Source of the DNA: an uncultured Erysipelotrichaceae bacterium
Lineage (GTDB): Bacteria; Bacillota_I; Bacilli_A; RF39; UBA660
Assembly (NCBI GenBank): GCA_902767375.1
Contig: CACXGV010000042.1
Span: forward strand, 1,188-65,187
Length of the DNA stretch: 64,000 bases
Direction of reading: 5' to 3'
Shown: piece after piece, positions 17,870 to 59,488 of the stretch
How the letters are laid out: every line of letters begins with the position of its first letter
Position numbering within the stretch: the first letter of the stretch is position 1
Position numbers and translations under genes: made by a program
The notes under the pieces: model-generated
Database searches by the model: none
Told to the model about the DNA's origin: nothing
Seen by the model: only the letters and a program-made list of their open reading frames with translations

Positions 17870-19465
17870 TTAAAATCCAATAGTATAGTACTCTCCTCTT
17901 GTTGATATAACAAGTTTAGTATTCTTATCTTTTTTAATAGTTTTAGATACATCGGCAAATATATATCCTTTAATTTTTGAATTCTCTGTTGTTTCAATAT
18001 CGGTTATAAACGTTGTCTCTCCACTAGTAAATGATACTTTTAGGAATCTATTAAAGAAATTCTTGGCACTATCTCCTACTGCACGATATATTTGAGATTT
18101 TTTATCTATATTTAGTTCATATTCTATTGATAATAAATTGTTAGTATTTTGTTTTAATGGCAACTGAACATCATATATTTTAATACAGTTTTCATTGTTG
18201 TTATCACATGAATCATAACTATATTCATGTGAGTTAGATAAAGTTACGCTTTTAATGGTTAAAGTTGTTGAGCCAAATATCGATTTATTAAAAGTTATTG
18301 GTTCATTTAGTTTTTTTTCAGCTTGGGTTAATTCATAATCGATATTTTGTGGGATGAAATCAAAGTCTTTAAATTTATATGTTTCATTACCATTTTTATC
18401 GTATTTAATTTGATCAAATACTTTTAGAGTATAACTACCTCTAGTATTTTTATCTACTTCAAAAATAAATATGTAATCGCCACCATTAGTAGTTATTTTG
18501 TCGCCGGCATAACTATTACCTATGTCACGGAATGAATCTGAAAAAGATGATTTATAATTCATTACTTTTCCACTTTTAGTTACATAGAATTTTGCTTGTT
18601 CGATGAAACCACCATCTGTGTAGTTACTAGTAATATTCATATCTAATATTAGATATTCTTTATCTGATTTGATTTTTTGACCTGCTATGTCGTATGAACT
18701 AACATAAACATTTTTTAAAGTATAATTAAATGCATCTGTTTTTAGAGTACTGCCGATACTGTAGCGACGATTTAAGAGCGTTACATTTAGTAATACAACA
18801 ATTGCAGTTACACCAACTACAACACCTGCAATTATTGAAATAAAGAATTTATTTTCGATTACATAATATTTAAACTCTCTTATTGCTCTTCTTAGTTTTC
18901 TTTTCCATTTAAATGAATCATTACCAAGAACAAATTCAAATTCCTCATTATCTTCACTTTTGATTTCAAGTTCTTCTAAGTCTTTACTAAAGTTAAATTT
19001 TTTTACATCAAATCCAACTGATCTTATCGCACTTGCAATAATAAAGTAAAAGTTAATAACGAACATTATGGTGAAAATATCATTGTAGGCTAGGGCGGTT
19101 CGTTCGTCCATAGTTCCATATTCTAATTTTTTTATAACATTATATGAAACTATTTGAGCGATGAAGGTTAAACTATAAAATCCTGTACTTAATAAATAAA
19201 ATAAACTAGGCTTCTTTTTTTGTTTCATTAATAAATACATTAATATTGAAAATATAATGACAATTACAACCGCAATGAACATTGTAATTGGGACATAATT
19301 TCCAGCTGCTACTTCTCCAACAAAATTTGTTGTTGAGTTGTAGTTGCTAAAGAAACTTAGTATTTTTTGAAATCCAACAGTGATATAGATAATAATTAAT
19401 AATAATGCTAAGTGAATATTTTTGAAATGTTTAATTAGAAAAGCGTATGGTTTCTTTAAGATCAT
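17870..19465 (-). CDS. Hypothetical polytopic membrane protein with a large extracytoplasmic C-terminal domain
   Basis: The 531-aa product has four N-terminal TM helices, a charged loop, a fifth TM (FFISIIAGVVVGVTAIVVLL), and then about 300 aa of beta-rich sequence. I recognise no family. Confidence 0.4.
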   Translation of the reverse strand: MILKKPYAFLIKHFKNIHLALLLIIIYITVGFQKILSFFSNYNSTTNFVGEVAAGNYVPITMFIAVVIVIIFSILMYLLMKQKKKPSLFYLLSTGFYSLTFIAQIVSYNVIKKLEYGTMDERTALAYNDIFTIMFVINFYFIIASAIRSVGFDVKKFNFSKDLEELEIKSEDNEEFEFVLGNDSFKWKRKLRRAIREFKYYVIENKFFISIIAGVVVGVTAIVVLLNVTLLNRRYSIGSTLKTDAFNYTLKNVYVSSYDIAGQKIKSDKEYLILDMNITSNYTDGGFIEQAKFYVTKSGKVMNYKSSFSDSFRDIGNSYAGDKITTNGGDYIFIFEVDKNTRGSYTLKVFDQIKYDKNGNETYKFKDFDFIPQNIDYELTQAEKKLNEPITFNKSIFGSTTLTIKSVTLSNSHEYSYDSCDNNNENCIKIYDVQLPLKQNTNNLLSIEYELNIDKKSQIYRAVGDSAKNFFNRFLKVSFTSGETTFITDIETTENSKIKGYIFADVSKTIKKDKNTKLVISTRGEYYTIGF

Positions 19466-19900: not shown

Positions 19901-20998
19901 CTAATCAAAGATAAAAATATGATTTGAATAATTAAAATTCCATTCTGGATATTTTAATAATAGTTCTTCATTTTTTAAATAATCATAACTATAAAGTTTA
20001 TCTTCACTTAAATAATATACTTTACTGCCATTACTCTTGACTATTTGTTTAACTTTTAGATTACTTATTATAATGGGATAATTGTCGATAGTTAAATACA
20101 ATGTACTATTATCTAAATAGTAATTATATATTTCTTTGTTTGAAAATTTAATTTCTTGATTAATTACTTTTGTTAAGGATTCATTTTTCCATACATTATT
20201 TTCTAGTATTCTACATGTATTTTCTTTAGAAATAATATTGAATTTAGATTTTTTTAAGTCTATTTCATATTCAAATTTGTTTTTCTTATCTACAAGGTAT
20301 GCCTTATTTTTATATACTCCTAGGAAAAAACTTTCATATGATATTTCAAAATCACTTATTATTGATTTTAATGTTTTTTTGTTAATATCATAAACATATA
20401 ATTTAGTAAAGAAATATTCCGAATCGTAATCTGGGAAAAATAATAAATTGTTTGATTGATATGTTAAGCTGTTTTGATAATTGTCCTTATTAAAAAATTT
20501 GTTTAAATCCTCATCTAAATCGGGGATACTATAAAAACCCTTATAATTCCAGATTAGGAAACGATTGGACTTATTATATATTGAAATATTTTGGTATGTA
20601 CTTTGAACTTCTGGCTTTTTACTATCATATCCTATTAGTTTCTTCATAGCACTGCTGGTAGTATTTGCATCAATAAGATTGCCTTTTTGAGAACAAATTG
20701 ACTTTTTTTCACCACTTATATTTACTATTAAGCATGTTTCATCTTTTTCTTCATATTTTTCAATGGTTGTAATATGTTTTCTCTTTCTAGTATAATTTTT
20801 GTGGAGAAATATGGGATAATCTATTTCTTCACTGTTTAGAATATAGAGATATCCATGATTATCTTTTTGATACTCTTCTGTTATCTTAATATCATTAATT
20901 ACGTAATTTAAGACGTAATTTTTAGGTGATAGAATCACAATGAGAAAGATAATAAAAAGAATACTAATTATAAATATTACAGTATATAATTTTTTCAT
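19901..20998 (-). CDS. Hypothetical membrane-anchored (N-terminal TM) extracytoplasmic protein
   Basis: The 365-aa product has an N-terminal anchor (LYTVIFIISILFIIFLIVIL). The remainder is Asn/Tyr-rich, beta-like sequence with no recognisable motif. Confidence 0.35.
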   Translation of the reverse strand: MKKLYTVIFIISILFIIFLIVILSPKNYVLNYVINDIKITEEYQKDNHGYLYILNSEEIDYPIFLHKNYTRKRKHITTIEKYEEKDETCLIVNISGEKKSICSQKGNLIDANTTSSAMKKLIGYDSKKPEVQSTYQNISIYNKSNRFLIWNYKGFYSIPDLDEDLNKFFNKDNYQNSLTYQSNNLLFFPDYDSEYFFTKLYVYDINKKTLKSIISDFEISYESFFLGVYKNKAYLVDKKNKFEYEIDLKKSKFNIISKENTCRILENNVWKNESLTKVINQEIKFSNKEIYNYYLDNSTLYLTIDNYPIIISNLKVKQIVKSNGSKVYYLSEDKLYSYDYLKNEELLLKYPEWNFNYSNHIFIFD

Positions 20999-21491: not shown

Positions 21492-22319
21492 CTATTTAAT
21501 TAATCCAACTGATTTTAGTTTAGCTACTAAAGCGTCTTTATCAACATATCCACTAATACAGTCAAAGCTTTTGCCGTTCTTAGTAAAAATTGTTAATGGA
21601 GTCCCAAATCCTGATGATAGTGGAGCTTCTTCTTTATTCTTAGCACATGATGCAGGAATCATTAGCCCAGAGTTCATAATTTTTGAATATTCATTTTTAT
21701 CAAATGAGTCTGAATCAAAATAATAAATGTCCACTTTTTCTTCATCTGCTACTTCATTATAAACTGGTTTATATTTATTACACCAACCACATGAATTTCT
21801 TCCAAATACTGCCATTGTAACTTTTTTACTATTAACTAAATCCATGTATTCCTTGTATGTAGAAACTGTTTTATATGCTATTTCATCATCTGGAATTATG
21901 TTATTTAAATATTTATCAATTCTGATTTGTAAATCTTTTTCAGATAATTTGTTTGATGAAGCCCAAACAACTTTTCCATCTTTAATAATTCCAAATACGT
22001 TTTCCATTTGAAATTCACTATTGTATTCTTTTAACTTAGATCTTTCTTCTGAAGTTAGTTTTGATGTATCAACAGTGAATACAGTAATTTTATTTTGTTT
22101 TCTTAGATTAATTAAAAAATCTTTATATGGACCATATTCATCCTTATCTGTAGTTCCTACATAAAATAATGCAAAGTTAAGATTACCTACTGATTTTTCG
22201 AAATCAGAAAATGTTTTAACTTCGACTCTATTACTATTAATTGAATTGACAATCATAGGAATAATTAAAATGATTGCTATTCCAATTCCTAATAACCAAT
22301 TTTTTACTTTTCCTTCCAT
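21492..22319 (-). CDS. Membrane-anchored thioredoxin-like protein (CGWC active site)
   Basis: An N-terminal TM is followed by two thioredoxin-like halves. The second half carries FGRNSCGWCNKYKP and the first lacks CxxC. Confidence 0.65.
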   Translation of the reverse strand: MEGKVKNWLLGIGIAIILIIPMIVNSINSNRVEVKTFSDFEKSVGNLNFALFYVGTTDKDEYGPYKDFLINLRKQNKITVFTVDTSKLTSEERSKLKEYNSEFQMENVFGIIKDGKVVWASSNKLSEKDLQIRIDKYLNNIIPDDEIAYKTVSTYKEYMDLVNSKKVTMAVFGRNSCGWCNKYKPVYNEVADEEKVDIYYFDSDSFDKNEYSKIMNSGLMIPASCAKNKEEAPLSSGFGTPLTIFTKNGKSFDCISGYVDKDALVAKLKSVGLIK

Positions 22320-23110: not shown

Positions 23111-23465
23111 TGGTGGAGCCGACCAGAATCGAACTGGTGTCCAAAAGTATTTCTCAATATGCTCTACAAGTTTAGATAATTTGTTATTTCATTAGTGCCC
23201 CGCAAATTATCTAAAGAATCACTAACTGAGCTTATTAAATTTCGTTCAATAAACTAAGCAATTTATTAAATATATTCTACTATTATGAACCAACTATAAA
23301 CTCTGTAGAATTAATTTATAGCCAGTGATCCGTGCCTTTAATTAGGCAAATGCTAGATCAGTATTAAAATTAAATTTGTCAGTTATTTTAACTGTTTGCT
23401 GATTAGGTCAGCAACCACTTGCACATAAAGCAAAATATTCTTTTGTCGAAGCCAAAAACGGCCCC
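23111..23465 (-). ncRNA. ssrA: tmRNA (SsrA)
   Basis: The minus-strand 5' end is GGGGCCGTTTTTGGCTTCGAC. The 3' end is GGACACCAGTTCGATTCTGGTCGGCTCCACCA, a tRNA-Ala-like acceptor and T-arm. An internal tag ORF reads GAC AAA TTT AAT TTT AAT ACT GAT CTA GCA TTT GCC TAA, encoding (A)DKFNFNTDLAFA. Confidence 0.92.
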
Positions 23466-26628: not shown

Positions 26629-27162
26629 CTATCTGTGATATCCAAACCTTAAAATATTATAGCTAATTAAATGTCTTCCTATATATTTTGAGGCAAATTC
26701 TTCTGATTCTACTAATAGATCAATATCGGTTCCTAAAACGCCACGATCTAGAACTATTGCCGTAATCATTCCTTCTTCATTGATTATATTACCATCAAAT
26801 TGAATAATAGATCCACATGCTAAATTTCTAGATGATGCTACTATTCTAACAGTACCATAATCTTTATCTTCATAAGTTGTTGTTTTGTCTAAAACATTTT
26901 GGCCATTACATCCAAGGTGACCATTACATAAAGGACAATCTGCAGCATATCCAGTTAAATCTCCATTATAAACATCTAGTGGTGTATATAAATCATTACG
27001 TACTATTTCTTCATATTTTATCGCCATAGCGTGTAAATCTAGTGTTTTATTTAAATTGTTATTAGATGTTTTCGTTGTACTTTGAGGAATGGTAGCTTCG
27101 GTGCACATAAAAACAAAAGCTAATACTATAATAAGTTGAGAAATATATTTGAATACTTTCAT
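26629..27162 (-). CDS. Secreted 3D-domain protein (YabE/MltA-like)
   Basis: It has a signal peptide. The 3D-domain pattern is LTGYAADCPLC...VRIVASS...GSIIQFDG...AIVLDRG...IDLLV. It occupies the position of Bacillus yabE. Confidence 0.7.
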   Translation of the reverse strand: MKVFKYISQLIIVLAFVFMCTEATIPQSTTKTSNNNLNKTLDLHAMAIKYEEIVRNDLYTPLDVYNGDLTGYAADCPLCNGHLGCNGQNVLDKTTTYEDKDYGTVRIVASSRNLACGSIIQFDGNIINEEGMITAIVLDRGVLGTDIDLLVESEEFASKYIGRHLISYNILRFGYHR

Positions 27163-29539: not shown

Positions 29540-29736
29540 AAAAAAATCATGAACTAAAGGACGGATATTTCCGCGGTACCACCTTAATTCATGATTATCT
29601 CATGCTCTTTATCCTTAACGCGGATGAACGTTTAAACTCCAGAGCCATGTTCATTAATACCAATTAATTCTCTTTCAGCACATGAGAACTCTCTTTATAA
29701 TTAGTTATTAATTACTCTTTCCTTCTTCGCTTAATA
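29540..29736 (-). promoter_or_regulatory. T-box riboswitch leader (Met specifier) controlling metG
   Basis: The minus strand carries stem I elements (AGAGAG...GCTGAAAGAG) and an AUG specifier in GAACAUGGCUCUGGAG. The conserved T-box AAGGTGGTACCGCG is present. The terminator is TCATGAA..AAGG/CCTTTAGTTCATGA followed by TTTTTTT. An upstream promoter reads TTGATT-17-TAAAAT with a TGn extension (29742-29770). Confidence 0.88.
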
Positions 29737-37280: not shown

Positions 37281-38852
37281 CTAATTTACTTCTACAATCT
37301 CTTCTGCAAATATATCTAATGCTGAATCAATTATTTTAACATCTTCGTTAATTTTTGGTTCATCTATGTAACTATATTCTTTGTCTTTATTTTTTATAAA
37401 TTGCTTTTTTTCTTTTTGCCATTCATCATCAGTTAAGCATATTGTTTTTATATTAATTTTTTCACTTTTTAATAGTTCTTCTTCTATTAAATTGGATTTT
37501 TCATTATACAAAAGTGCGGTTGATGATGATTTTATTGAAAACAATACATTAGTTGGCGAAACAACTTCGATAGAAAGATCTTCTAGAAGAGATAACATTT
37601 CAACATTTGATTTATCAATCTCTTTATTTATAAATATTTCCCAAGATTTTTTAAATTTTTCTTTTTCCTGTTTTGAAGCTCCAACAAATGCATTATTAAT
37701 TCTAATTTTTTTAATATCATCGGAAATTACAGGCTTTGATTCTATTTTTAATTCTGCACTTTCTTCTTTTTCACTTGTTACTTCGGTTGGCTTTGAAATT
37801 ATTTCCCGGGAAATAATTTCAGGGTTTTTTTCTTGGGAAATAATTTGGGAAATATTACTTACAATAATCATTTTTATAAGTAATAAGGCATCTTGCTTGT
37901 TATAACATTTTATTAGTTCGTTTGCCATTGTTTTAATTTGATCTATTGATAAAAAGTGTTTTTTTCCAGAAACTATCCCTATTTCCAAGGTATAAAGGTA
38001 GTTTAATATTTTTGAAATTAGCAAGTTTGTGTCCAATCCTTTTTTTGAATATTCATCGAATATTCCTTCAAGCTTTTCTATGTCCCCTTTAGATAAACAG
38101 TTAAATATCTCTTCAACCTCATTTTCAGTTAATACACCAAAAGATTCCTGGATTAAATCCACAGTTATTTCTTTTTCTTCTTTTGATAATTGATCAAGTA
38201 AACTCAAAGCATCTCTCATACCGCCATCAGCTAATGAAGCTATATAGTTAGCGGCTTCTTGGTTTATTTTTATTTTTTCCAATTTAGAAATTCTTAATAT
38301 ATTTTCTGCTATAATTTCAACTGAAATTTTTTGAAAGTTAAATCTTTGACATCTTGAAAGGATTGTTATTGGTATTTTTTGGATTTCAGTTGTTGCTAGA
38401 ATGAATATTACATGCTTTGGTGGTTCTTCTAATATCTTTAAGAACGCATTCCAAGCACTTTGTGACAACATGTGTACTTCATCTATTATATATACTTTAT
38501 ATTTACTGAATGCAGGTAATATTTTTGCGTTATCTCTTAAATCTCTTATTTCATCAACTCCATTATTTGAAGCAGCATCTATTTCAATTATATCTGGAGA
38601 TTGTTCATAGTTAATGCATGGCATACATTTATTGCATGGTATACCATCTTTAGGATTTTCACAGTTTATTGTTTTAGCAAATAGTTTTGCTGTACTTGTT
38701 TTTCCTGTTCCTCTAGGGCCGGAGAATAAATAAGCGTGTGAAATTTTATCATTAATTATAGAATCTATTAGTAATTTTTTTATTGTGTTTTGACCAAATA
38801 AGGTGTTAAAGTCTTGTGGTCTATATTTACGGTATAATACTTTATATGCCAT
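37281..38852 (-). CDS. dnaX: DNA polymerase III subunit gamma/tau
   Basis: GPRGTGKTS is the Walker A motif. The zinc module is CENP..GIPCNKCMPC. IIDEVHMLS and SRC are also present. Confidence 0.93.
   Translation of the reverse strand: MAYKVLYRKYRPQDFNTLFGQNTIKKLLIDSIINDKISHAYLFSGPRGTGKTSTAKLFAKTINCENPKDGIPCNKCMPCINYEQSPDIIEIDAASNNGVDEIRDLRDNAKILPAFSKYKVYIIDEVHMLSQSAWNAFLKILEEPPKHVIFILATTEIQKIPITILSRCQRFNFQKISVEIIAENILRISKLEKIKINQEAANYIASLADGGMRDALSLLDQLSKEEKEITVDLIQESFGVLTENEVEEIFNCLSKGDIEKLEGIFDEYSKKGLDTNLLISKILNYLYTLEIGIVSGKKHFLSIDQIKTMANELIKCYNKQDALLLIKMIIVSNISQIISQEKNPEIISREIISKPTEVTSEKEESAELKIESKPVISDDIKKIRINNAFVGASKQEKEKFKKSWEIFINKEIDKSNVEMLSLLEDLSIEVVSPTNVLFSIKSSSTALLYNEKSNLIEEELLKSEKINIKTICLTDDEWQKEKKQFIKNKDKEYSYIDEPKINEDVKIIDSALDIFAEEIVEVN
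37800..37815. promoter_or_regulatory. Noc-binding-site (NBS)-type palindrome TATTTCCCGGGAAATA inside dnaX
   Basis: This perfect 16-bp palindrome contains the 14-bp B. subtilis NBS consensus ATTTCCCGGGAAAT. Degenerate half-sites (TTGGGAAATAATTTGGGAAAT) follow it. It lies in the poorly conserved tau linker (peptide ...EIISREIISKP...). Confidence 0.55.
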
Positions 38853-39326: not shown

Positions 39327-39337
39327 TTTTTACTCCT

Positions 39338-39417
39338 AAAAAAAGCGCACATACAAAGAGGCAAATATGGCTGCTTTCTTCCGAATCTGACCAGTTTATT
39401 GCATATGTATTGCGCAA
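39338..39417 (-). ncRNA. ffs: Signal recognition particle RNA, short (4.5S-like) form
   Basis: The minus strand reads GCGCAATACATATGCAATAAACTGGTCAGATTCGGAAGAAAGCAGCCATATTTGCCTCTTTGTATGTGCGC followed by a T7 run. It contains the conserved domain IV GGUCAG.UUC[GGAA]GAAAGCAGCC with a GNRA tetraloop and symmetric loop. The closing helix is GCGCA.AUACA/UGUAU.UGCGC. A promoter and a T-run bracket it tightly. Confidence 0.8.
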
Positions 39418-39421
39418 TTTA

Positions 39422-39451
39422 ATAATATCATATTTTTAATTATAATGGCAA
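39422..39451 (-). promoter_or_regulatory. Promoter of the SRP RNA gene
   Basis: On the minus strand TTGCCA is followed by an 18-nt spacer and TATTAT, with a TGn extended -10 (TGATATTAT). The predicted start is about 7 nt downstream, at the first G of the closing helix. Confidence 0.6.
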
Positions 39452-39464
39452 TCATTACTTATTA

Positions 39465-39480
39465 TGTTTCACGTGAAACA
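39465..39480. promoter_or_regulatory. parS: parS site 1 (TGTTTCACGTGAAACA)
   Basis: This is a perfect 16-bp palindrome matching the Firmicute parS consensus TGTTNCACGTGAAACA. It lies 14 bp upstream of the ffs -35 element. Confidence 0.8.
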
Positions 39481-39529: not shown

Positions 39530-39545
39530 TATTTCCCGGGAAATA
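39530..39545. promoter_or_regulatory. NBS-type palindrome TATTTCCCGGGAAATA (between parS 1 and 2)
   Basis: This perfect 16-bp palindrome is identical to the copies at 37800 and 40115. It contains the NBS consensus ATTTCCCGGGAAAT. Confidence 0.6.
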
Positions 39546-39565
39546 TTTTTTTGATAATTTTTAGA

Positions 39566-39581
39566 TGTTTCACGTGAAACA
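39566..39581. promoter_or_regulatory. parS: parS site 2
   Basis: Perfect TGTTTCACGTGAAACA. The palindrome extends to 18 bp (ATGTTTCACGTGAAACAT). Confidence 0.8.
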
Positions 39582-39693
39582 TTGTTTATGAAATATATAT
39601 TTTTTATCTATTTATTTAATAATTTTAGCAATTGATTGTTCTATAAAATATTTTATTTAGTTTCTTAAATAATTTCCTAATATTTATAATTGA

Positions 39694-39709
39694 TGTTTCA
39701 CGTGAAACA
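39694..39709. promoter_or_regulatory. parS: parS site 3
   Basis: Perfect TGTTTCACGTGAAACA. It forms the left end of 117-bp repeat unit A. Confidence 0.8.
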
Positions 39710-39791
39710 TTGTTGATAACTATTAATAAATATAGTTATATTACTCACCTCTAAGTTTTACAATGTGTTTTATGTACTGTTCATAATTTAA

Positions 39792-39807
39792 TGTTTCACG
39801 TGAAACA
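39792..39807. promoter_or_regulatory. parS: parS site 4
   Basis: Perfect TGTTTCACGTGAAACA. It forms the right end of repeat unit A, 98 bp from site 3. Confidence 0.8.
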
Positions 39808-39951
39808 TTAAATTTTAAAATACTATTTGTCCGCTTTGTTATATTATAATTGCTATTGCTGTTTTTTTAATATCAGTTCTTGTAATTAAGATGCTTTTTT
39901 AGTTTTTTTATTTTGGTTTTGCTGTTTGCAATTTTTTTAATGGTTTTTTTA

Positions 39952-39967
39952 TGTTTCACGTGAAACA
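39952..39967. promoter_or_regulatory. parS: parS site 5
   Basis: Perfect TGTTTCACGTGAAACA. It forms the left end of repeat unit B. Confidence 0.8.
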
Positions 39968-40049
39968 TTGTTTATAACTATTAATAAATATAGCAATATT
40001 AGTCATTTTTGAGTTTTATAATATATTTTATGTATTGTTCTTGAATTAA

Positions 40050-40065
40050 TGTTTCACGTGAAACA
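40050..40065. promoter_or_regulatory. parS: parS site 6
   Basis: Perfect TGTTTCACGTGAAACA. It forms the right end of repeat unit B, 98 bp from site 5. Confidence 0.8.
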
Positions 40066-40114
40066 TTAATTACAGATTTTAAAAATCTGAATTTTTTAAA
40101 TTTTGTTTACTTTT

Positions 40115-40130
40115 TATTTCCCGGGAAATA
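40115..40130. promoter_or_regulatory. NBS-type palindrome TATTTCCCGGGAAATA (right flank of the parS array, abutting the gyrA terminator)
   Basis: Perfect 16-bp palindrome, the third identical copy in the window. Confidence 0.6.
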
Positions 40131-40158
40131 AAAAAAGAAGAATATTTCTATTCTTCTT
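40131..40158 (-). terminator. Terminator after gyrA
   Basis: On the minus strand AAGAAGAATA-GAAA-TATTCTTCTT is followed by TTTTTTT. It overlaps the gyrA stop codon. Confidence 0.7.
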
Positions 40159-42709
40159 TAGAGTTTTCAACATTATTTTCAGTATCTACTATTTCATCTT
40201 CTTCATTTTTTTGGATTAAGCTAATAGATGATACTTGTTGATTATCTTTAAGATTTATTAGTCTCGTTCCTTGGGTAACTCTACCAAGCTGTGATATTTG
40301 ATCAACAGGAATCCTAATAATTGTTCCTGAATCAGTTATCAACATTAAATCTGAGTTATCTATAACTCGTTTAATAGCAACGATTTCACCATTCTTATCG
40401 GTAACGTTTAGAGCTTTAACTCCTTTGCTACCTCTTTTGGTTTTTCTAAATTCAGAAATTATAGTTTTCTTACCATATCCTTTTTTTGTAACAATTATTA
40501 TATTATCGGATTCTTTAGTTGTTTCTAAACTTACACAAGTAGATCCATCTAGATTAATTCCTTTTACTCCGCTTGCTGTTCTTCCCATAACTCTTATCTC
40601 ATTTTCATTAAATACAGCCATTTTACCTGAACTTGCTGCAAGCATTACGTCACATTCACCATCGGTTTTCTTTACATCAACCAATTCATCATTATCTTTT
40701 AATCCAATACATAATTTTCCTGTTTTTCTGATATTTTCAAATTCACGTACATCTGTTCGTTTTACTAATCCGTTCTTTGTAGCAAATAATAGATATTTGC
40801 ATACATCTTTAGCGGCAATTGACATTATTGATGATACTTTTTCATCTTTTTCAATTGGAAGTAAGTTGATTATTGGTAATCCCTTAGCAGCACGGCTATA
40901 TTCAGGTACCTCATAACCTTTAATTCTATACACTTTTCCTTTATTAGTGAAAATCAATAAGTGGTCGTGTGAGTCTAAATTTAAAATGTATTCTACGTAG
41001 TCTTCTTCATTAGTTGTCATTCCTTTAACTCCGACTCCACCACGGTTTTGTGTTTTATAATTATCTGATGTAATTCTCTTAATGTACCCGTTATGAGTTA
41101 GAGAAACTACTACATTATCGTTTGGAATTAGAGATTCATCCTCTATATAGTCTATTGCGGTCATATCGATATGAGTTCGACGTTCATCCGCATATTTGTC
41201 TTTTATTTCTTGTAATTCTTGTTTTACGATTTCTAGTACTTTTTCATCACTAGCTAAGATAGCTTTTAATTGTTCAATTAATTCTAGTAAATCAGCTAAT
41301 TCTTTTTCAATTTTTTCTCTTTCTAAGCCAGTTAGTCTTCTTAATCTCATTTCAAGAATGGCATCAGCTTGAATTTCAGATAGACCAAAATTCTTAATTA
41401 ATCCACTCTTTGCTTCTTCATCAGTTGCAGATTCTCTAATTAATTTGATTACAGCATCTATGTGATCTAGAGCTATTTTTAAACCTTCTAAAATATGAAC
41501 ACGATTTTCTGCTTTGTTTAAATCAAACTTTGTTCTTCGAACAATTACTGTTCTTTGATGATCAATATACTTAGAAATTATATCTTTTAAGCCTAGAACT
41601 CTAGGTGTTTTATCATCAATCATTAGGAATATTATTCCAAATGTAGTTTGAAAGTTAGTTAATTTATACAATTTATTTAATACAACTTGAGGATTTGCAT
41701 CTTTTTTTAGCGTAATAGTGATTTTTACACCATTTTTTAGATCAGTATGGTAGTCAGATATGCCATCTATTATTTTATTATGAACTAATTCTGCTACTCT
41801 TGTTTTTAAGTCTGATGTATTAACACCATAAGGAACCTCTGTAATGATAATATTACTATGGTTTTGATGTTCTTCAATTTCTGCCTTACTTCTAATAGTA
41901 ATTGTTCCTCGACCTGTTTCATAAGCTTTTTTAATTCCGCTATTTCCTAGTATGATACCACCAGTTGGAAAATCAGGTCCTTTAATATAATGCATTAATC
42001 CATTAGTATCGATATCGGGGTTGTCTATATACGCTATGCAGCCATCTATTACTTCACCTAGGTTGTGTGGTGGAATATTTGTGGCCATACCAACTGCGAT
42101 ACCCATGGTTCCGTTGACAAGTATATTAGGAAATTTTGATGGTAAAACCAAAGGTTCTTTTTTAGTTTCATCAAAGTTTAACTGCATGTCTACTGTATCT
42201 TTATTAATATCTTTTAATAATTCTAATGATATTTTTGATAATCTAGATTCAGTATAACGATATGCAGCTGCTCCATCACCATCAATATTACCAAAGTTTC
42301 CGTGTCCATCTACGAGAGTATATCTTTCTGTCCAGTCTTGAGCTAGACGAACCATTGCTTCATAAATTGAAGTATCTCCATGTGGATGGTAGGAACCAAT
42401 TACGTTACCTACTGTTGTGGCACATTTTTTATGAGGTTTATCTGGAGTATATCCATTTTCATACATTGACCATAAAATTCTACGATGAACTGGTTTTAGA
42501 CCATCTCTTAAATCTGGAATGGCACGAGCCATAATTACGCTCGCAGAATAATCAATAAAAGATTTTTTTACTTCATCAACAATATTATTATGAGTAAAAC
42601 TATCTCTTTCATGAAATTCGCCACTATAAATTGCTGTTTCTTCAGTACTTTCTTCTTCTGAGTCAATTGGTTCTATTTCATTTAAATTATTTAATTCTTC
42701 GTTGTCCAT
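40148..42709 (-). CDS. gyrA: DNA gyrase subunit A
   Basis: AIPDLRDGLKPVHRRILW and the catalytic segment AAAYRYTESRL are present, along with C-terminal beta-pinwheel repeats. The start is set at the ATG at 42709 (MDNEELNN), which has a GGGGTGA RBS. Confidence 0.94.
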   Translation of the reverse strand: MDNEELNNLNEIEPIDSEEESTEETAIYSGEFHERDSFTHNNIVDEVKKSFIDYSASVIMARAIPDLRDGLKPVHRRILWSMYENGYTPDKPHKKCATTVGNVIGSYHPHGDTSIYEAMVRLAQDWTERYTLVDGHGNFGNIDGDGAAAYRYTESRLSKISLELLKDINKDTVDMQLNFDETKKEPLVLPSKFPNILVNGTMGIAVGMATNIPPHNLGEVIDGCIAYIDNPDIDTNGLMHYIKGPDFPTGGIILGNSGIKKAYETGRGTITIRSKAEIEEHQNHSNIIITEVPYGVNTSDLKTRVAELVHNKIIDGISDYHTDLKNGVKITITLKKDANPQVVLNKLYKLTNFQTTFGIIFLMIDDKTPRVLGLKDIISKYIDHQRTVIVRRTKFDLNKAENRVHILEGLKIALDHIDAVIKLIRESATDEEAKSGLIKNFGLSEIQADAILEMRLRRLTGLEREKIEKELADLLELIEQLKAILASDEKVLEIVKQELQEIKDKYADERRTHIDMTAIDYIEDESLIPNDNVVVSLTHNGYIKRITSDNYKTQNRGGVGVKGMTTNEEDYVEYILNLDSHDHLLIFTNKGKVYRIKGYEVPEYSRAAKGLPIINLLPIEKDEKVSSIMSIAAKDVCKYLLFATKNGLVKRTDVREFENIRKTGKLCIGLKDNDELVDVKKTDGECDVMLAASSGKMAVFNENEIRVMGRTASGVKGINLDGSTCVSLETTKESDNIIIVTKKGYGKKTIISEFRKTKRGSKGVKALNVTDKNGEIVAIKRVIDNSDLMLITDSGTIIRIPVDQISQLGRVTQGTRLINLKDNQQVSSISLIQKNEEDEIVDTENNVENSKEE

Positions 42710-42725
42710 TTTTTCACCCCACTTA

Positions 42726-44657
42726 CTAAATATCGACGTCCGCATATCTTGCGTTATCTTCTATAAATTGTCTTCTTGGTTCTACTTCTTCTCCCATTAG
42801 TTTTTCAAATATTGCATCAGCTGCTATTAAATCATCAACTGTGATTCTTCTTAAAACTCGGGTATTAATATCCATTGTAGTTTCATATAATTCCTCAGCG
42901 TCCATTTCACCAAGACCTTTCATTCTGGTAATTTCAGCACGAGTACGATCGCTTTCTTTTAAAGTAGCTAAATATGAATCTCTCTCTTTTTCATCAAGGA
43001 CATATTTACGTGTTTTTCCAAATCTAATTCTAAATAATGGAGGTTGAGCGGCATACACATGACCAGCTTCAACAATTGGTCTAAAATAACGATAAAATAA
43101 GGTTAATAATAGTACTCTAATATGTGCTCCGTCAACATCGGCATCGGTCATAATTACAATTTTGTCATATCTTAATTTAGAAATATCAAAGTCGGCTCCA
43201 ATTCCAGTGCCAAAAGCGGTAATTATTGTTTTAATTTCCTCATTAGATAATGCTTTATCTAATCTTGCTTTTTCAACATTTAAAATTTTACCTCTTAAAG
43301 GAAGAATTGCTTGAGTCATAGAATCTCTTCCTTCTTTTGCTGATCCTGCTGCTGAATCTCCCTCGACTATAAAGATTTCGGAAACTACTGGATCTTTGCT
43401 TTTACAATCTGATAGTTTTCCCCATGTATTAACTGTTGTTAAATCAGATCTTCTTGAAGCCTCTCTAGCTTTTCTAGCAGCATTTCTTGCTCGACAAGCC
43501 GCTAAGGCTTTATCAATAATTATTCTTGCTTCTGAGGGATTTTCCATTAAGAATCTTTCAAATCCTTGTGAAAATACAGAATCTGCTAATTTTCTAACTT
43601 CAGAGTTCCCTAATCTTCCTTTTGTTTGTCCTTCGAATTGAGGATTTGGATGTTTACAAGAAATAATCATTGTTAAACCTTCTTTAACATCATCTCCAGT
43701 TAAAGATTCATCTTTTTCCTTTAAGATATTCGTTTTTCTAGCATAATTATTTATTACTCTAGTTAATGCTCTTCTTACTCCTTCTTCATGGGTTCCACCA
43801 TCGTGAGTATTGATATTGTTAACAAACGAATATATATTGTCATTATATCCAGTATTGTATTGCATTGCGACTTCAAAGAATACTCCATCTTCTTCACCCT
43901 CAAGATGGATTATATCTTCATGAACTGGTGTTTTACCACTATTAATGAATTTTACATATTCACTAATTCCACCTTCATATAGAAAATGTTCACCAGTGGT
44001 GTCTTCTTCATTACGATCGTCTCTTAAAGTAAGAGCTAATCCTTTATTTAGGAATGCTAGTTCTCTTACTCTTACTTTTAAAGTTTCGTAATCGAAAATT
44101 TCTGTATCAAAGATGTCTGGATCTGGTTTAAATGATACTGTTGTTCCAGTACGATTTGCTTCGCATTCTCCTATAACAGTTAGCTTTTGAGCTGTTTTTC
44201 CACCATTTTCAAATTTAGCTTCGTATATTTTTCCTTCTTTATAAACTGTAACGACAACCCATTTTGATAGTGCATTAACAACAGATGCTCCTACTCCGTG
44301 AAGTCCACCTGATACTTTATATCCTCCACCACCAAATTTTCCACCGGCATGTAACACTGTATATACTGTTTCTACAGTAGAAATACCAGTTTTTTTATGG
44401 ATTCCTACTGGAATACCTCTACCATCATCTTTAACAGTTATAGAATTATCTTTATTGATAATTATTTCAATATTTTTACAAAATCCAGCCAATGCTTCAT
44501 CTATTGAATTATCAACAATTTCCCATACTAAATGGTGAAGACCTTTTACATCTGTTGTACCAATGTACATACCGGGTCTTTTTCTTACTGCTTCTAAACC
44601 TTCTAAGACTTGAATATCACTTTCGTTATATTCTAAATTATTGTTATCGTTATTCAT
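42726..44657 (-). CDS. gyrB: DNA gyrase subunit B
   Basis: The GHKL ATPase is marked by [16 protein letters not shown] and GLHGVG. The Toprim domain is marked by [14 protein letters not shown]-like and the [12 protein letters not shown] motifs. Confidence 0.95.
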
Positions 44658-45848: not shown

Positions 45849-46295
45849 TTAGCTATTTTTTCTATTTTTAAAATTGTTCTCTAAAGATAAAGATTTTAGA
45901 TATTGATTATTAATTATTCGATAAGTAGAATCTACTTCTAAACTTTCTTCATTTAAAAATTCTATACGACATTTATTATCATAATTAGTAATTCTACTAA
46001 TATTAGATAGATTTATCCAGGCACATTCTTTTAATCTTGGAGAACATGTGGGAAAAAATATTAATGGTTGATTTTCTGATACAATTATTGGTGCCTTGTA
46101 ATTAAAACCACTTATATCATATGTTCCTTTTATTCTTCCTTCCATACTACTTCCATTATAACGACAATTATCATCCATGATTCTAGAAATTTTTTGATCA
46201 ATTATATAACAATCATGTTTTTCATATACTACTGTTTTCTTTTTTCCTAATGGAAATAATGCTAGCGTATCGTTACTAATAAAATAATCTTTCAT
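45849..46295 (-). CDS. comK: Competence transcription factor ComK-family protein (short, 148 aa)
   Basis: C-RYNGSSMEGRIKGTYDISGFNYKAPIIVSENQPLIFFPTCSP....CAWIN aligns motif for motif with B. subtilis ComK as I remember it (CRFFGSSYAGRKAGTYEVT..HKPPIMV...IFLFPTLS....CGWIS). Confidence 0.8.
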   Translation of the reverse strand: MKDYFISNDTLALFPLGKKKTVVYEKHDCYIIDQKISRIMDDNCRYNGSSMEGRIKGTYDISGFNYKAPIIVSENQPLIFFPTCSPRLKECAWINLSNISRITNYDNKCRIEFLNEESLEVDSTYRIINNQYLKSLSLENNFKNRKNS

Positions 46296-47627: not shown

Positions 47628-48971
47628 TTAATTAACAATTTTATTTTTAATTTGTTCAATAGTTTCTTTTAATTCAAAATTTGTTTTTAATTCATCTGCT
47701 ATCTTTTCATAAGAATGCAATACTGTTGAATGATCTCTATTTCCAAATTCTAGTCCTATTTTAACTATTGTTTCTTCTGTGGTCATCCGACATAGATACA
47801 TTGCTATTTGTCTTGGATAATTTATATTTGCTGTCCTTTTTTTACTTTTTAAATCTTCTATAGTTATTTTAAAGTGATCTGCAACAGCTTTTTGAATTCT
47901 TTGTATATCATTTGTTACGTATATTGATGATACTAAGTAATCCTTTAAAGCTTCAACAGCAAATTCTAAGTTTATTTCTTTTGGACACATCATCGCTGCA
48001 TAGGCATATAGAATATTGATAGCTCCTTCTAAATGTCTTACATCATTTTCACTATTAGATGCTATATATTCAATAACTTCGTTGTCTACTAAGTTTGCTA
48101 CTTCATGTCCTGACATTTTATCTTTTAAAATTTTGCATTTTAATTCAAAATCTGGTGGATAAATATTAACTGTTAATCCCCATCTAAATCTAGTTCTTAA
48201 TCGATCTTCTAAGTATTTTAAATCGTCTGGAGAACGATCTGAACTTATAATTATTTGTTTATTTAAATCATATAATGTTGTAAATGTATGAAAGAATTCA
48301 TCTTGTGATTTAGCAGCACCTCCTAAGAATTGGATATCATCTATCATTAAGACATCTATATTTCGATATTTTTCTTTAAATTGACTTCTAATATCAAAAT
48401 TATTTTCATCTTTTTTAGTTATTCCGATAAAGTCTGCTATGAATTCTTCACTTGTTATATATAATACTGTTTTATTTGAATTTTTTTCAATATAATTGCC
48501 TATAGCATGCATTAAATGGGTTTTGCCTAAACCACTTTTTCCATATATAAATAATGGATTATATATCTTACCTGGTTGCTCAGCTACAGCTAAGGCAGCG
48601 GTTTGTGCAAATCGGTTACTATCACCTATCATAAAGTTTTCAAATGTATAGTTTGGATTTAAATTCGAATTAATTCTTTGGTGGATAACTTCCTCTTTTT
48701 CGACATTATCATTTATTGATTCTAGTTCTTCTTCGACAACAAATTCTAAATCATAGTTAGTTCCAGTTATTGAATTAATTATTTCTTCTATTAAATCATA
48801 ATAATTATCATTTAAGAATTTTTTATGGAATGTCATAGGCACTTGAATGATTAGTTTTCCATTTTTTATATCTACAAGTTTAGTTTCTTTAAACCAAGTA
48901 TTAAAGGAAATCGTAGTGATTCTTGTATTAAGTACGTTTAAAAAATTATTCCAAAGTTCGTCATTAGTCAT
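47628..48971 (-). CDS. dnaA: Chromosomal replication initiator DnaA
   Basis: Walker A GKSGLGKTHL and Walker B LMIDDIQF are present. Domain IV is marked by RQIAMYLCR and GNRDHSTVLH. Confidence 0.96.
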   Translation of the reverse strand: MTNDELWNNFLNVLNTRITTISFNTWFKETKLVDIKNGKLIIQVPMTFHKKFLNDNYYDLIEEIINSITGTNYDLEFVVEEELESINDNVEKEEVIHQRINSNLNPNYTFENFMIGDSNRFAQTAALAVAEQPGKIYNPLFIYGKSGLGKTHLMHAIGNYIEKNSNKTVLYITSEEFIADFIGITKKDENNFDIRSQFKEKYRNIDVLMIDDIQFLGGAAKSQDEFFHTFTTLYDLNKQIIISSDRSPDDLKYLEDRLRTRFRWGLTVNIYPPDFELKCKILKDKMSGHEVANLVDNEVIEYIASNSENDVRHLEGAINILYAYAAMMCPKEINLEFAVEALKDYLVSSIYVTNDIQRIQKAVADHFKITIEDLKSKKRTANINYPRQIAMYLCRMTTEETIVKIGLEFGNRDHSTVLHSYEKIADELKTNFELKETIEQIKNKIVN

Positions 48972-55412: not shown

Positions 55413-56624
55413 ATGAATAGAGAATCAACAATTCAAAATATTAATGTAGATCTCATTATTCCAAATAGATTTCAACCAAGACTTACTTTTGATGAGAATG
55501 CTTTAAACGAACTTGCAAAATCTATTAAAGAGCATGGTATTATTCAACCCTTAGTTTTAAGAAGAGTAGATGACAAATATGAAATTATTGCTGGTGAAAG
55601 AAGATATAAAGCTGCTCAGCTTGCTGGGCTATCAGAAGTTCCTGCAATAATTACTGATATAGATGATAATAAGAGTGCAGAGGTTGCTTTAGTTGAAAAT
55701 GTGCAAAGAAAAAATTTGAATTCAATGGAAGAGGCGCGTTCTTATAAAAAAATATTAGATAAGGGTTATTTAACTCAAGAGGCCTTGGCACAAAAAATGG
55801 GAATTTCTCAATCTAATTTAGCTAATAAGTTAAGATTATTAAATCTAGCACCTGAAGTACAAGAAGCACTTGTTAATAATAAGATTAGTGAAAGACATGC
55901 AAGAAGTCTCTTATTAGTAAATGATCCTCTTAGACAAATTTCACTTCTTAATAGAATTATTGCAGAAAGATTAACAGTAAGACAACTAGATGCAATTATT
56001 AAGGAAAATACAACTACAACTGTAGTTCCAAGTCCTGTTAATATAACTCCATCTGTTGAAATTCCTGATGTGGTTAAAGAGGAGACTGTTACTCCAACAG
56101 AGGTGGTAGAAAATTCTCCTGTACAACAAGAAGAATCTGCTGTTGTAACAAATGAGGAAGTATCAGCTTCAGATAATGATACTGAAGGGGCGCAAACAGA
56201 TGTTGAAACACTTGATACTTTAGATGATGATATTGAGAAACATGATAATCCATTAGATAGAATTTTAGAAAAGATTACAGGACCACAATATCCTTCTCTT
56301 GAAGATGAAGCAGCTAATTTAAATATGGATACAGACGATTATTTTAATCCTTTTAATAATGTTGATAATGAACCAATGCCTCAATTTGATGCTCCAAAAG
56401 AAGAAGAAACTGCAGTAATAGAAGAGAAAGAAGAGGAAGTTTCAGAGGTAGTTGAAGAAAATCCTCAATTTGTAATTGAGCCTAATAATTTCGAATCAAT
56501 TAAGAAAGCATATAATAATTTAAGAAATGAAATCGAAAAAGCCGGTTATAAAATAACGACTGAAGATTTTGATTTTGAAGATATTTATCAAATAATTATT
56601 AAAATTGATAAACCAGAAGAATAA
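55413..56624 (+). CDS. noc: ParB-family protein with a Noc-type recognition helix, a long acidic insertion and no N-terminal membrane-targeting extension
   Basis: The ParB N-domain is marked by IPNRFQPR and IIAGERRYKAA. The HTH region is LTQEALAQKMGISQSNLANKLRLLNLAPEVQEALVNNKISERHARSLL. An Asp/Glu/Thr/Val-rich segment runs from about residue 200 to 345, followed by a small C-terminal domain. It lies directly after rsmG, where Bacillus noc sits. Confidence 0.75.
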   Translation: MNRESTIQNINVDLIIPNRFQPRLTFDENALNELAKSIKEHGIIQPLVLRRVDDKYEIIAGERRYKAAQLAGLSEVPAIITDIDDNKSAEVALVENVQRKNLNSMEEARSYKKILDKGYLTQEALAQKMGISQSNLANKLRLLNLAPEVQEALVNNKISERHARSLLLVNDPLRQISLLNRIIAERLTVRQLDAIIKENTTTTVVPSPVNITPSVEIPDVVKEETVTPTEVVENSPVQQEESAVVTNEEVSASDNDTEGAQTDVETLDTLDDDIEKHDNPLDRILEKITGPQYPSLEDEAANLNMDTDDYFNPFNNVDNEPMPQFDAPKEEETAVIEEKEEEVSEVVEENPQFVIEPNNFESIKKAYNNLRNEIEKAGYKITTEDFDFEDIYQIIIKIDKPEE

Positions 56625-58611: not shown

Positions 58612-58932
58612 GTGATTTTTATGATATTAAATTTATATAAGAACGGGAAATTAGTTTTAACTGCGGAAGGAACACTTCAAGGAGATGAAGCAGTTTTTGG
58701 GAACATTGTTTACCATATGGTGGATAATACTTTAATAAGACAAGATGCTAGTTATAAATATCTTTTAGATTTTAAAAATGAAGAAGCAGAAGTTGAACTT
58801 AAAGAATATAATCAAAGTCTTCCTTTGACAATAAAAGTATTATCAATTGAAGTAAGTGATAAGGGACATAAAATTTCATATAATATTGAAAGTGAACAAA
58901 CTATAGAAAATGTTTTAGAAGTCTTTTTTTAG
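58612..58932 (+). CDS. Small hypothetical protein, possibly DUF1934/YwiB-like (by position upstream of rpoE)
   Basis: This is a 106-aa soluble, beta-rich protein. The call is weak because it rests only on synteny remembered from other Firmicutes. Confidence 0.3.
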   Translation: MIFMILNLYKNGKLVLTAEGTLQGDEAVFGNIVYHMVDNTLIRQDASYKYLLDFKNEEAEVELKEYNQSLPLTIKVLSIEVSDKGHKISYNIESEQTIENVLEVFF

Positions 58933-59056: not shown

Positions 59057-59488
59057 ATGAAAATTAAATTAACAGATGAAGAGAAGGAAACTTTATCTTA
59101 TAGTGACGTAGCATTTTTAGTATTACAATCAGCAAATAAGAAGCTAAAAATTCAAGATTTATTTAAAAAGGTAATTAAATTATTAGATTTAGATGAGAAT
59201 GAATTTGAAGAAAATATTGGAAATTTCTTTGAAGAAATTATAACTGATAAAAGATTTATTATGTTAGATAATGGGTACTGTGATTTAAAAATTAACCATA
59301 GTACTAAGGTAATCGTTGAAGATGATGATGAAGACTATGAAATTGTACCAGAAGATGATGATTTTGAAGATGGTAACGAAGAAGATAACTATGATGAAGA
59401 TGCTAATGCTGATGATGATGCAGAAGATGATCTTCAAGATTTAGTTATTTTAGATTCTGCCGATGAATTAGAAGATTCTGATATATAG
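59057..59488 (+). CDS. rpoE: DNA-directed RNA polymerase delta subunit
   Basis: The N-terminal HARE-HTH-like domain is marked by LSYSDVAFLVL and DKRFIMLDNG. The poly-acidic C-terminal tail reads EDDDEDYEIVPEDDDFEDGNEEDNYDEDANADDDAEDD. Confidence 0.88.
   Translation: MKIKLTDEEKETLSYSDVAFLVLQSANKKLKIQDLFKKVIKLLDLDENEFEENIGNFFEEIITDKRFIMLDNGYCDLKINHSTKVIVEDDDEDYEIVPEDDDFEDGNEEDNYDEDANADDDAEDDLQDLVILDSADELEDSDI

Follow-up and report, generated by a model that had tools for sequence, protein, structure and literature searches.

Why should the binding sites of a Noc-type protein stand inside and beside a parS centromere? The question is raised by a 64-kb stretch of DNA from an uncultured Erysipelotrichaceae bacterium (contig CACXGV010000042.1), referred to below as the window, which covers an origin region with a G+C content of ca. 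27% and in which three identical copies of a 16-bp palindrome lie within or close to an array of six parS sites. Noc is the textbook nucleoid-occlusion factor of Gram-positive bacteria, with scattered sites and a membrane helix as its defining traits, and Wu et al. reportedly described Bacillus subtilis Noc, its Noc-binding sites (NBS) and its part in nucleoid occlusion in 2009. The reading favoured here, with a probability of roughly 0.7, is that the three 16-mers are nucleation sites for the Noc-type protein encoded at 55413-56624, kept by selection inside or beside the parS centromere, and that they would serve a mixed two-clamp complex near oriC and not genome-wide occlusion.

The palindrome, TATTTCCCGGGAAATA, is present as three exact copies in the window, with no fourth match when up to 2 mismatches are allowed. 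The chance expectation is 0.03 copies, and none of 100 shuffles (0/100) contained three. The parS sequence, TGTTTCACGTGAAACA, is found as six exact copies. These are the same 16-mers as the NBS and parS duplexes in the published Noc-NBS and ParB-parS co-crystals (PMC7383237). A gap of 720 bp between the signal recognition particle (SRP) RNA gene ffs and gyrA houses the whole parS array and two of the NBS copies, the remaining copy being located within dnaX. Measured from start to start, the layout is NBS(dnaX)-1665-parS-65-NBS-36-parS-128-parS-98-parS-160-parS-98-parS-65-NBS, with the individual features as follows:

37800-37815: NBS copy 1, exact match, inside the dnaX coding sequence at ca. 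codon 346, in the variable linker region of DnaX, where it encodes IISREII
37835-37842 and 37847-37854: two GGGAAATA half-sites beyond the dnaX NBS, in a 12-nt coding repeat (IISQ/IISR peptide repeat)
39465-39480: parS1, exact match, 14 bp upstream of the -35 element of the ffs promoter
39530-39545: NBS copy 2, exact match, between parS1 (49 bp before) and parS2 (20 bp after)
39566-39581: parS2, exact match
39694-39709: parS3, first site in copy 1 of a 122-nt two-parS module
39792-39807: parS4, exact match
39952-39967: parS5, first site in copy 2 of the 122-nt module
40050-40065: parS6, exact match
40115-40130: NBS copy 3, exact match, 49 bp after parS6, merging with the T-run of the hairpin at the gyrA stop codon
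40136-40157, minus strand: AT-rich 10-bp hairpin spanning the gyrA stop codon, followed by a U-run (minimum free energy -16 kcal/mol, z -3.7)

The array has been put together from sub-duplications of 82 nt and 122 nt. The 82-nt module, composed of a parS, 49 bp and an NBS, stands at both ends of the array as direct repeats that are 76% identical (parS1 with NBS copy 2 and parS6 with NBS copy 3), while the 122-nt two-parS module is present twice with 87% identity. The parS array is in itself unusual, holding six perfect sites within 600 bp of one intergenic gap. The AT-rich hairpin at its gyrA end is the probable gyrA terminator; a simple terminator scan made no call there because the hairpin is too AT-rich, with too few G-C pairs for the rule of the scan. 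NBS copy 3 together with its T and A flanks (40108-40135) forms a 24-bp perfect palindrome, which folds as a second RNA hairpin directly after that of the terminator. This folding would suit a palindrome unrelated to the ParB family, acting as an RNA hairpin or as a site for another transcription factor or a restriction-related enzyme (core CCCGGG). An origin of this kind is considered exceedingly improbable, given that all 16 positions are those of the Noc site and that a matching reader is encoded in every genome; furthermore, the three copies differ in their flanks and context (coding, intergenic and terminator-adjacent), and no Rfam family match was obtained there.

Which protein, then, would read these sites? 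The 403-amino acid product of 55413-56624 is encoded by the sole ParB-family gene in the window and consists, in order, of an N-terminal domain that binds cytidine triphosphate (CTP), a helix-turn-helix, an acidic linker of ca. 150 amino acids and a Noc-like C-terminal domain. Its best matches among solved structures are Noc (1e-55), followed by Spo0J/ParB (1e-45), and it matches Pfam ParB_N at 1.4e-35. The best NCBIfam model is likewise Noc (TIGR04285), with a score of 269.8 bits for the native protein against a cut-off of 315 bits; a linker-deleted construct aligned end to end (model positions 2-255) and reached 285.2 bits, still under 315. At the specificity positions 173, 179, 184 and 201 the window protein carries Q, K, N and R, compared with Q/K/K/R in Noc and R/T/A/G in ParB. 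With a Lys at 179 or 184, adenine 1 is recognised by Q173 and cytosine 6 by R201, and a single such Lys alongside Q173 and R201 suffices for NBS specificity (PMC7383237). Possessing Q173, K179 and R201, the window protein is predicted from its sequence to be an NBS-specific reader. The CTP-switch motifs GERRYKA and ENVQR are intact in this protein and in all orthologues, and they match Noc R89 and N121, which are required for CTP binding (PMC8429893). The first-pass annotation had taken the palindrome for a Noc-type site with a Noc-like reader at 55413-56624, had located one copy between parS1 and parS2, one beyond parS6 touching the gyrA terminator tail and one inside dnaX followed by half-sites, and had judged a chance origin unlikely. 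All of this is borne out, by the positions and the folding, by the rarity of the 16-mer and its identity with the published duplex, and by the specificity residues, the CTP motifs and the location of the gene after rsmG.

The window protein does not possess the N-terminal amphipathic membrane-targeting helix of Noc, formed by the first 10 amino acids, ca. 26 amino acids before the core, and essential for the membrane binding and function of that protein (PMC4331003, PMC8429893). The helix is missing because there is no N-terminal extension to carry it: in an alignment with the solved Noc chain 7NFU, residue 6 of the window protein falls opposite residue 27. The codon at 55413 is the first start codon after a stop, leaving no possible upstream extension of the open reading frame (ORF), and in nearly all relatives just ca. 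16 residues stand ahead of the PNRFQPR motif. The membrane-targeting helix is absent from the N-terminus in every one of more than 250 family members. The linker (56012-56470, residues ca. 200-350) is acidic, disordered and highly variable in length, and it harbors conserved short motifs (ETLD; FN[IL]F[DN].P.YPSLED, in its longer form FNIFD.P.YPSLEDE; KYEIFDIPT[AG]EE; NPF/NIFD) which look like docking peptides for another factor. Relocation of the membrane helix into the linker is no more than a lead, the linker motif being acidic in most members (KYEIFDIPTAEE, FNIFD.P.YPSLEDE). An amphipathicity scan of the linker was suggestive in some orthologues only, one of which (L005; locus numbers of this form denote relatives) contains NSFSKLFNIFK, a stretch both amphipathic and basic.

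A single orthologue is located after rsmG in ca. 30 related genomes, all with the pattern Q-K-x-R. Proteins of the same type, with these reading residues and without the N-terminal helix, account for 115 of 115 parsed database orthologues and for every parsed member among 150 diverse representatives (227-744 amino acids), and the features hold too in 120 more distant relatives. More than 250 relatives keep the NBS-reading residue pattern. At 50% clustering, the 150 best representatives mostly exceed 60% identity over the N-terminal 200 residues. Gut and rumen metagenomes contain the family in abundance. In one relative (L176, 10001-11432) the gene is apparently split: a 204-amino acid ORF holds the N-terminal domain and helix-turn-helix, and after it comes a 269-amino acid ORF in which N, P and Q abound and which has a short C-terminal segment. 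The split may be genuine, or it may stem from a frameshift or from misassembly.

Are the sites themselves conserved, and at what level? An unbiased set of 42 dnaA-anchored loci (L005-L042 etc.), 745 kb in total, was assembled from related species. In most of the loci reaching that far, gyrA is followed by a parS array of 2-9 copies (arrays at ca. 18.7-19.7 kb in L005-L042), with copy number and spacing changing rapidly among relatives. A perfect NBS, corresponding to the dnaX site of the window, lies ca. 1.7 kb past the array in nearly all loci extending there. This is the same exact 16-mer, at DnaX residue ca. 336-358, and it occupies either of two codon phases: one subclade has it as IISREII, another as NYFPGNN, and the adjacent residues are unconserved, which shows selection on the DNA and not on the protein. 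NBS copies inside the array are seen in L005, L006, L013, L018 and L036 in addition to the window. Another subclade has a conserved NBS in the 65-bp mnmE-jag spacer, 2.4 kb from dnaA (L029 7569-7584, with equivalents in L019, L022-L032, L035 and L042; none in the window). Further fixed origin-proximal copies, one NBS per lineage and also with none in the window, are located in the mnmE-mnmG spacer (L173 6660; L173-175) and directly upstream of dnaA (L176 1498; L039 9579).

The 745 kb of loci contain 96 perfect parS and 49 perfect NBS. By placement, 12 NBS in the unbiased set lie within 150 bp of a parS, 23 at dnaX and 12 in the mnmE-jag spacer, and the rest of the origin-proximal DNA, more than 300 kb, contains none; similarly, ca. 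78 kb of the source genome (the window and its extensions) holds no further NBS at up to 2 mismatches. All fully covered genomes (21/21) have at least one NBS within ca. 2 kb of the array, 18 at dnaX only and 3 at both places, while 30 of 35 loci selected for an array NBS have no dnaX copy. Taken together, these two counts make the constraint look like a requirement for an NBS close to parS, wherever there is room. From these comparisons of sequence, a non-random and conserved placement of NBS in or beside the parS array, under DNA-level selection across a deep clade, is supported. Ordinary nucleoid occlusion, in which the three copies would be some of many genome-wide sites of a normal Noc and their closeness to parS incidental, has the motif, the reader residues and the rsmG synteny in its favour, all of them Noc-like. 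It is nevertheless rated as very unlikely: the membrane-targeting helix that is essential to Noc (PMC4331003, PMC8429893) is found in none of the more than 250 members, NBS stand at three fixed positions only in more than 300 kb of origin DNA of the relatives and in ca. 78 kb of the source genome, and the dnaX site is kept in two reading frames, with array and dnaX sites complementary in their occurrence.

The association with parS was followed further in metagenome contigs, where a scan for parS-N(20-50)-NBS gave at least 120 stretches, some sharing a contig or species; a pattern-selected set (L047-L166) was taken from contigs picked in this way. All of the stretches have 20-33% G+C, and all but one are found at the gyrA-[array]-tadA-dnaX-recR locus, with GyrA 50-71% identical to that of the window, so that the composite array, occupying the same locus despite this divergence, marks a deep clade. 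The sole exception, L083, is a short contig with no flanking gene matched. A plasmid or phage origin of the array was rejected, as the array has no plasmid match and no viral contig with the composite pattern was found. The arrays contain up to 9 parS and 9 NBS. Strict alternation is observed in many of them, for example L080 (P-27-N-45, x4, where P is parS and N is NBS) and L160 (N-40-P-35, x3), and also L106 and L072. Alternating junctions make up 350 of 482 in the pattern-selected set, against 263 ± 9 in label shuffles, and 22 of 44 in the unbiased set, against 17.6 ± 2.3 (p = 0.04). Furthermore, distances between adjacent parS and NBS in the pattern-selected set show a periodicity of 10.5-10.75 bp in half-turn phase, with peaks near 25, 36, 47, 58 and 68 bp (Rayleigh power 33, null mean 2.9; with the spacers conservatively clustered 12.2, null mean 3.5, a value reached in 0 of 3000 randomisations), while parS-parS and NBS-NBS distances have no such periodicity. 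The half-turn phase would tend to put parS and NBS on opposite faces of the helix.

These arrays also bear on a boundary or roadblock function, in which Noc-type dimers or clamps would confine ParB clamps to the array, or shield ffs, gyrA and dnaX, with no joint function with ParB. In the window, each end of the array does have an NBS close to it, one adjoining the gyrA terminator and the other separated from the ffs promoter by a single parS, and most relatives have an extra NBS 1.7 kb off in dnaX. However, flanking is not consistent among relatives, and in the strictly alternating arrays (L080, L160, L106 and L072) every parS would be isolated. The parS1-NBS and parS6-NBS modules of the window are direct repeats and not mirror-image brackets, and in 18 of 21 genomes the sole nearby NBS is on one side, in dnaX. 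A roadblock is on these grounds regarded as unlikely.

An improbable account to a similar degree is control of replication initiation, according to which the protein would spread from origin-proximal NBS over oriC and dnaA and restrain DnaA, with proximity to parS secondary to that of oriC. In relatives, NBS are present on both sides of oriC (mnmE-jag at 2.4 kb from dnaA, mnmE-mnmG in L173-175, and upstream of dnaA in L039 and L176), and Noc of Staphylococcus aureus spreads over 8-10 kb and controls initiation (PMC5540599). Against this, the tightest association in the clade of the window is with parS (within 150 bp, alternating and phased), 8-9 kb from dnaA, and not with the DnaA-box regions flanking dnaA. 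Initiation control is compatible with the data, and the two roles, at the centromere and in initiation, are not mutually exclusive.

If the Noc-type protein reads NBS, what reads parS? A related lineage (L173-175) has the gene order rsmG, Noc-type protein (QKSR, with no membrane helix), ParA and ParB, which is the ancestral order surviving. Its ParB is taken for a parS reader because it carries the LGRGL N-terminal peptide, R173 and S201, and with both types encoded side by side the Noc-type family is seen to coexist with canonical ParAB. A DNA comparison of composite-array loci with this lineage gave only ca. 75% identity and no same-species link. In L173-L175 a ComK-family gene is also located between dnaN and recF (ca. 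170-630), a position at which the window has none. S. aureus is a further precedent: its noc follows rsmG, its parB lies elsewhere and it has no parA (PMC5540599). It is very probable that the genome of the window likewise encodes a separate ParB elsewhere.

Could one ParB-family protein do both jobs instead? In that case canonical ParB would have been lost and the 403-amino acid protein would read parS as well as NBS, perhaps by two modes of binding. No other ParB-family gene was seen in the window or its extensions, nor within 10 kb of dnaA in ca. 30 genomes; no ParA was seen there either, and parS and NBS are often 6-30 bp apart. A single reader is nonetheless judged quite unlikely. Q173 and R201 are NBS-specific, whereas R173 is invariant in parS binders and dual binders mostly have T or S at 201 (PMC7383237). 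Promiscuity should tolerate hybrid sites, yet parS/NBS hybrids, sought as a sign of one promiscuous reader, numbered 0 in the 745 kb of loci beside the 96 parS and 49 NBS, as would be expected of two separate strict readers. In addition, an R173-type ParB and a ParA are kept beside the same Noc-type protein in L173-175, and the S. aureus arrangement accommodates a parB away from noc without a parA.

Returning to the favoured reading, a canonical ParB encoded outside the window would load at parS, and a Noc-type dimer at NBS. Each would close as a CTP clamp, and the two would slide along a common stretch of a few kilobases, forming a mixed two-clamp partition complex near oriC. Having no membrane helix, the Noc-type protein would not serve as a tether for nucleoid occlusion across the genome but as a partner specific to the centromere and origin. 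Its acidic linker, with docking motifs (ETLD, FNIFD.P.YPSLEDE or KYEIFDIPT), may recruit or repel another factor, or tune the ParB complex. A more far-reaching version is put forward tentatively: ParB and the helix-less Noc paralogue would load from interdigitated sites, tending to lie on opposite helix faces, into one mixed complex, the acidic tail instead of ParA would link the origin to a cellular partner, and the family would be a living intermediate of Noc evolution, with its specificity switched from parS to NBS while still centromeric, at a stage preceding the membrane helix and the scattering of sites or on a path that never led to them.

Several points weigh against this reading. Neither a parS-type ParB, sought by tblastn of the window and loci, nor a ParA was found in the window, in ca. 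14 kb past its ends, near the arrays or within 10 kb of dnaA in ca. 30 relatives. The Noc-type protein scores under the NCBI Noc cut-off, and NBS binding, CTP-dependent sliding and linker partners are predictions from sequence. An amphipathic helix is plausible for the linker motif in part of the clade and may confer some membrane affinity, and the NBS census covers origin-proximal DNA only. The phasing is a tendency, with 52% of distances near half-integer turns against 40% expected after clustering, and it is evident neither in the small unbiased set nor strictly in the window (spacings of 65, 36 and 65 bp). The first-pass annotation had proposed two paralogous systems nucleating within 700 bp, as a composite of centromere and membrane tether, as a barrier or as competing clamps. 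Nucleation of two systems at one place is supported, as a design conserved across a deep clade, with discrete motifs and with both systems encoded in L173-175; its second half is only inferred for the genome of the window, since the parS-reading ParB was not found in the window or within 10 kb of dnaA in ca. 30 relatives. The tether is not supported, the N-terminal membrane helix being absent, and a barrier or a competition between clamps, while possible, would fit strictly alternating arrays poorly. The contrary case that it had named, of similar 16-mers being frequent everywhere, is not what the origin-proximal DNA of the relatives and ca. 78 kb of the source genome show.

How does this arrangement compare with known systems? 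B. subtilis Noc has the same 16-bp site, Q173/K179/R201, a ParB-type CTP domain, a Noc-like C-terminal domain and a gene after rsmG (PMC4331003, PMC7383237, PMC8429893). It differs in its N-terminal helix, which the window protein does not have, while the family described here has an insertion of 150 to more than 400 amino acids forming the acidic linker with short motifs. The sites differ as well: classical Noc has tens of NBS over the origin-proximal half to two-thirds of the chromosome, whereas here they are concentrated in or near the parS array and at one or two fixed origin-proximal spots, making three fixed positions within the origin-proximal DNA examined. S. aureus Noc, too, is encoded without an adjacent parB; its genome has no parA, and the protein acts in the control of initiation, with small peaks around dnaA, but interleaving with parS is not reported there (PMC5540599). 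The ParABS centromeres of B. subtilis, Caulobacter, Corynebacterium and Myxococcus (PMC7333895) share the perfect consensus and multiple origin-proximal parS, presumed to be loading sites for ParB-CTP. In contrast to these, 2-9 parS stand here ca. 50-150 bp apart in one intergenic gap, interdigitated with the sites of a second clamp, and the ParB and ParA genes are not nearby. The literature yielded no report of NBS interleaved with parS. The components are thus from known families, while the arrangement, the helix-less architecture and the implied function are new.

For an adaptor specific to the origin, the spore-former B. subtilis offers a functional parallel in RacA and its ram sites: RacA is a second site-specific DNA-binding protein, with origin-clustered sites alongside Spo0J-parS, and it anchors the origin in sporulation. 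RacA is not a ParB-family CTP clamp, however, and ram sites are spread over ca. 600 kb and not interleaved with parS. KorB of RK2 and PadC/ParB-like proteins have the same clamp fold with sites of their own and roles other than ParA partition, on plasmids or as regulators; to our knowledge, no clamp of this type shares a tandem array with canonical parS. The family described here is very large and previously unremarked, possessing the DNA specificity and CTP switch of Noc, yet no membrane helix and, across the origin-proximal DNA covered, no scattered sites. Here, in nature, two paralogous CTP-dependent clamps would have to load onto a few hundred shared base pairs and slide along them, which raises the question of whether different ParB-family clamps block, ignore or recruit each other. 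Questions are also opened on how a partition complex joins cell structures where ParA may be missing, and on the evolutionary route from ParB to Noc. With regards to annotation, labelling these genes 'Noc' or 'ParB' leads to a wrong prediction of their biology.

In the window the genes around the origin show Bacillus-like synteny. A GC-skew minimum at ca. 48-49 kb places oriC ca. 8-9 kb from the array, and the principal neighbouring features are:

37281-38852, minus strand: dnaX, host gene of NBS copy 1
39329-39426, minus strand: ffs, the SRP RNA gene, bounding the array on the side opposite gyrA
39451-39422, minus strand: promoter-like site of ffs, TTGCCA-18-TATTAT
40148-42745, minus strand: gyrA, bounding the array
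47628-48971, minus strand: dnaA
54610-55329, plus strand: rsmG (gidB), conserved upstream neighbour of noc genes
55413-56624, plus strand: gene of the Noc-type ParB paralogue, directly after rsmG

One side of the origin has the order dnaA-dnaN-recF-gyrB-gyrA-[array]-ffs-tadA-dnaX-recR-holB...pth-mfd-metS-ksgA-yabG-divIC, and the other rnpA-yidC-jag-mnmE-mnmG-rsmG. The window includes the sporulation genes spoIIR, spoIID and yabG. Its source organism is represented by metagenome assemblies alone, and the relatives are gut and rumen metagenome-assembled genomes labelled Bacilli, Tenericutes, Mollicutes or Erysipelotrichaceae. Several ORFs are conserved while matching neither Pfam nor NCBIfam (17870-19465, 19901-20998, 21492-22319, 26629-27162, 58612-58932, 59057-59488 and 45849-46295), and they include two small ones between the PBP1A gene and prfA that are kept beside the Noc-type gene in the source species. 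A T-box leader (29554-29736) upstream of metS and a transfer-messenger RNA gene (23111-23465) adjoining divIC are both ordinary.

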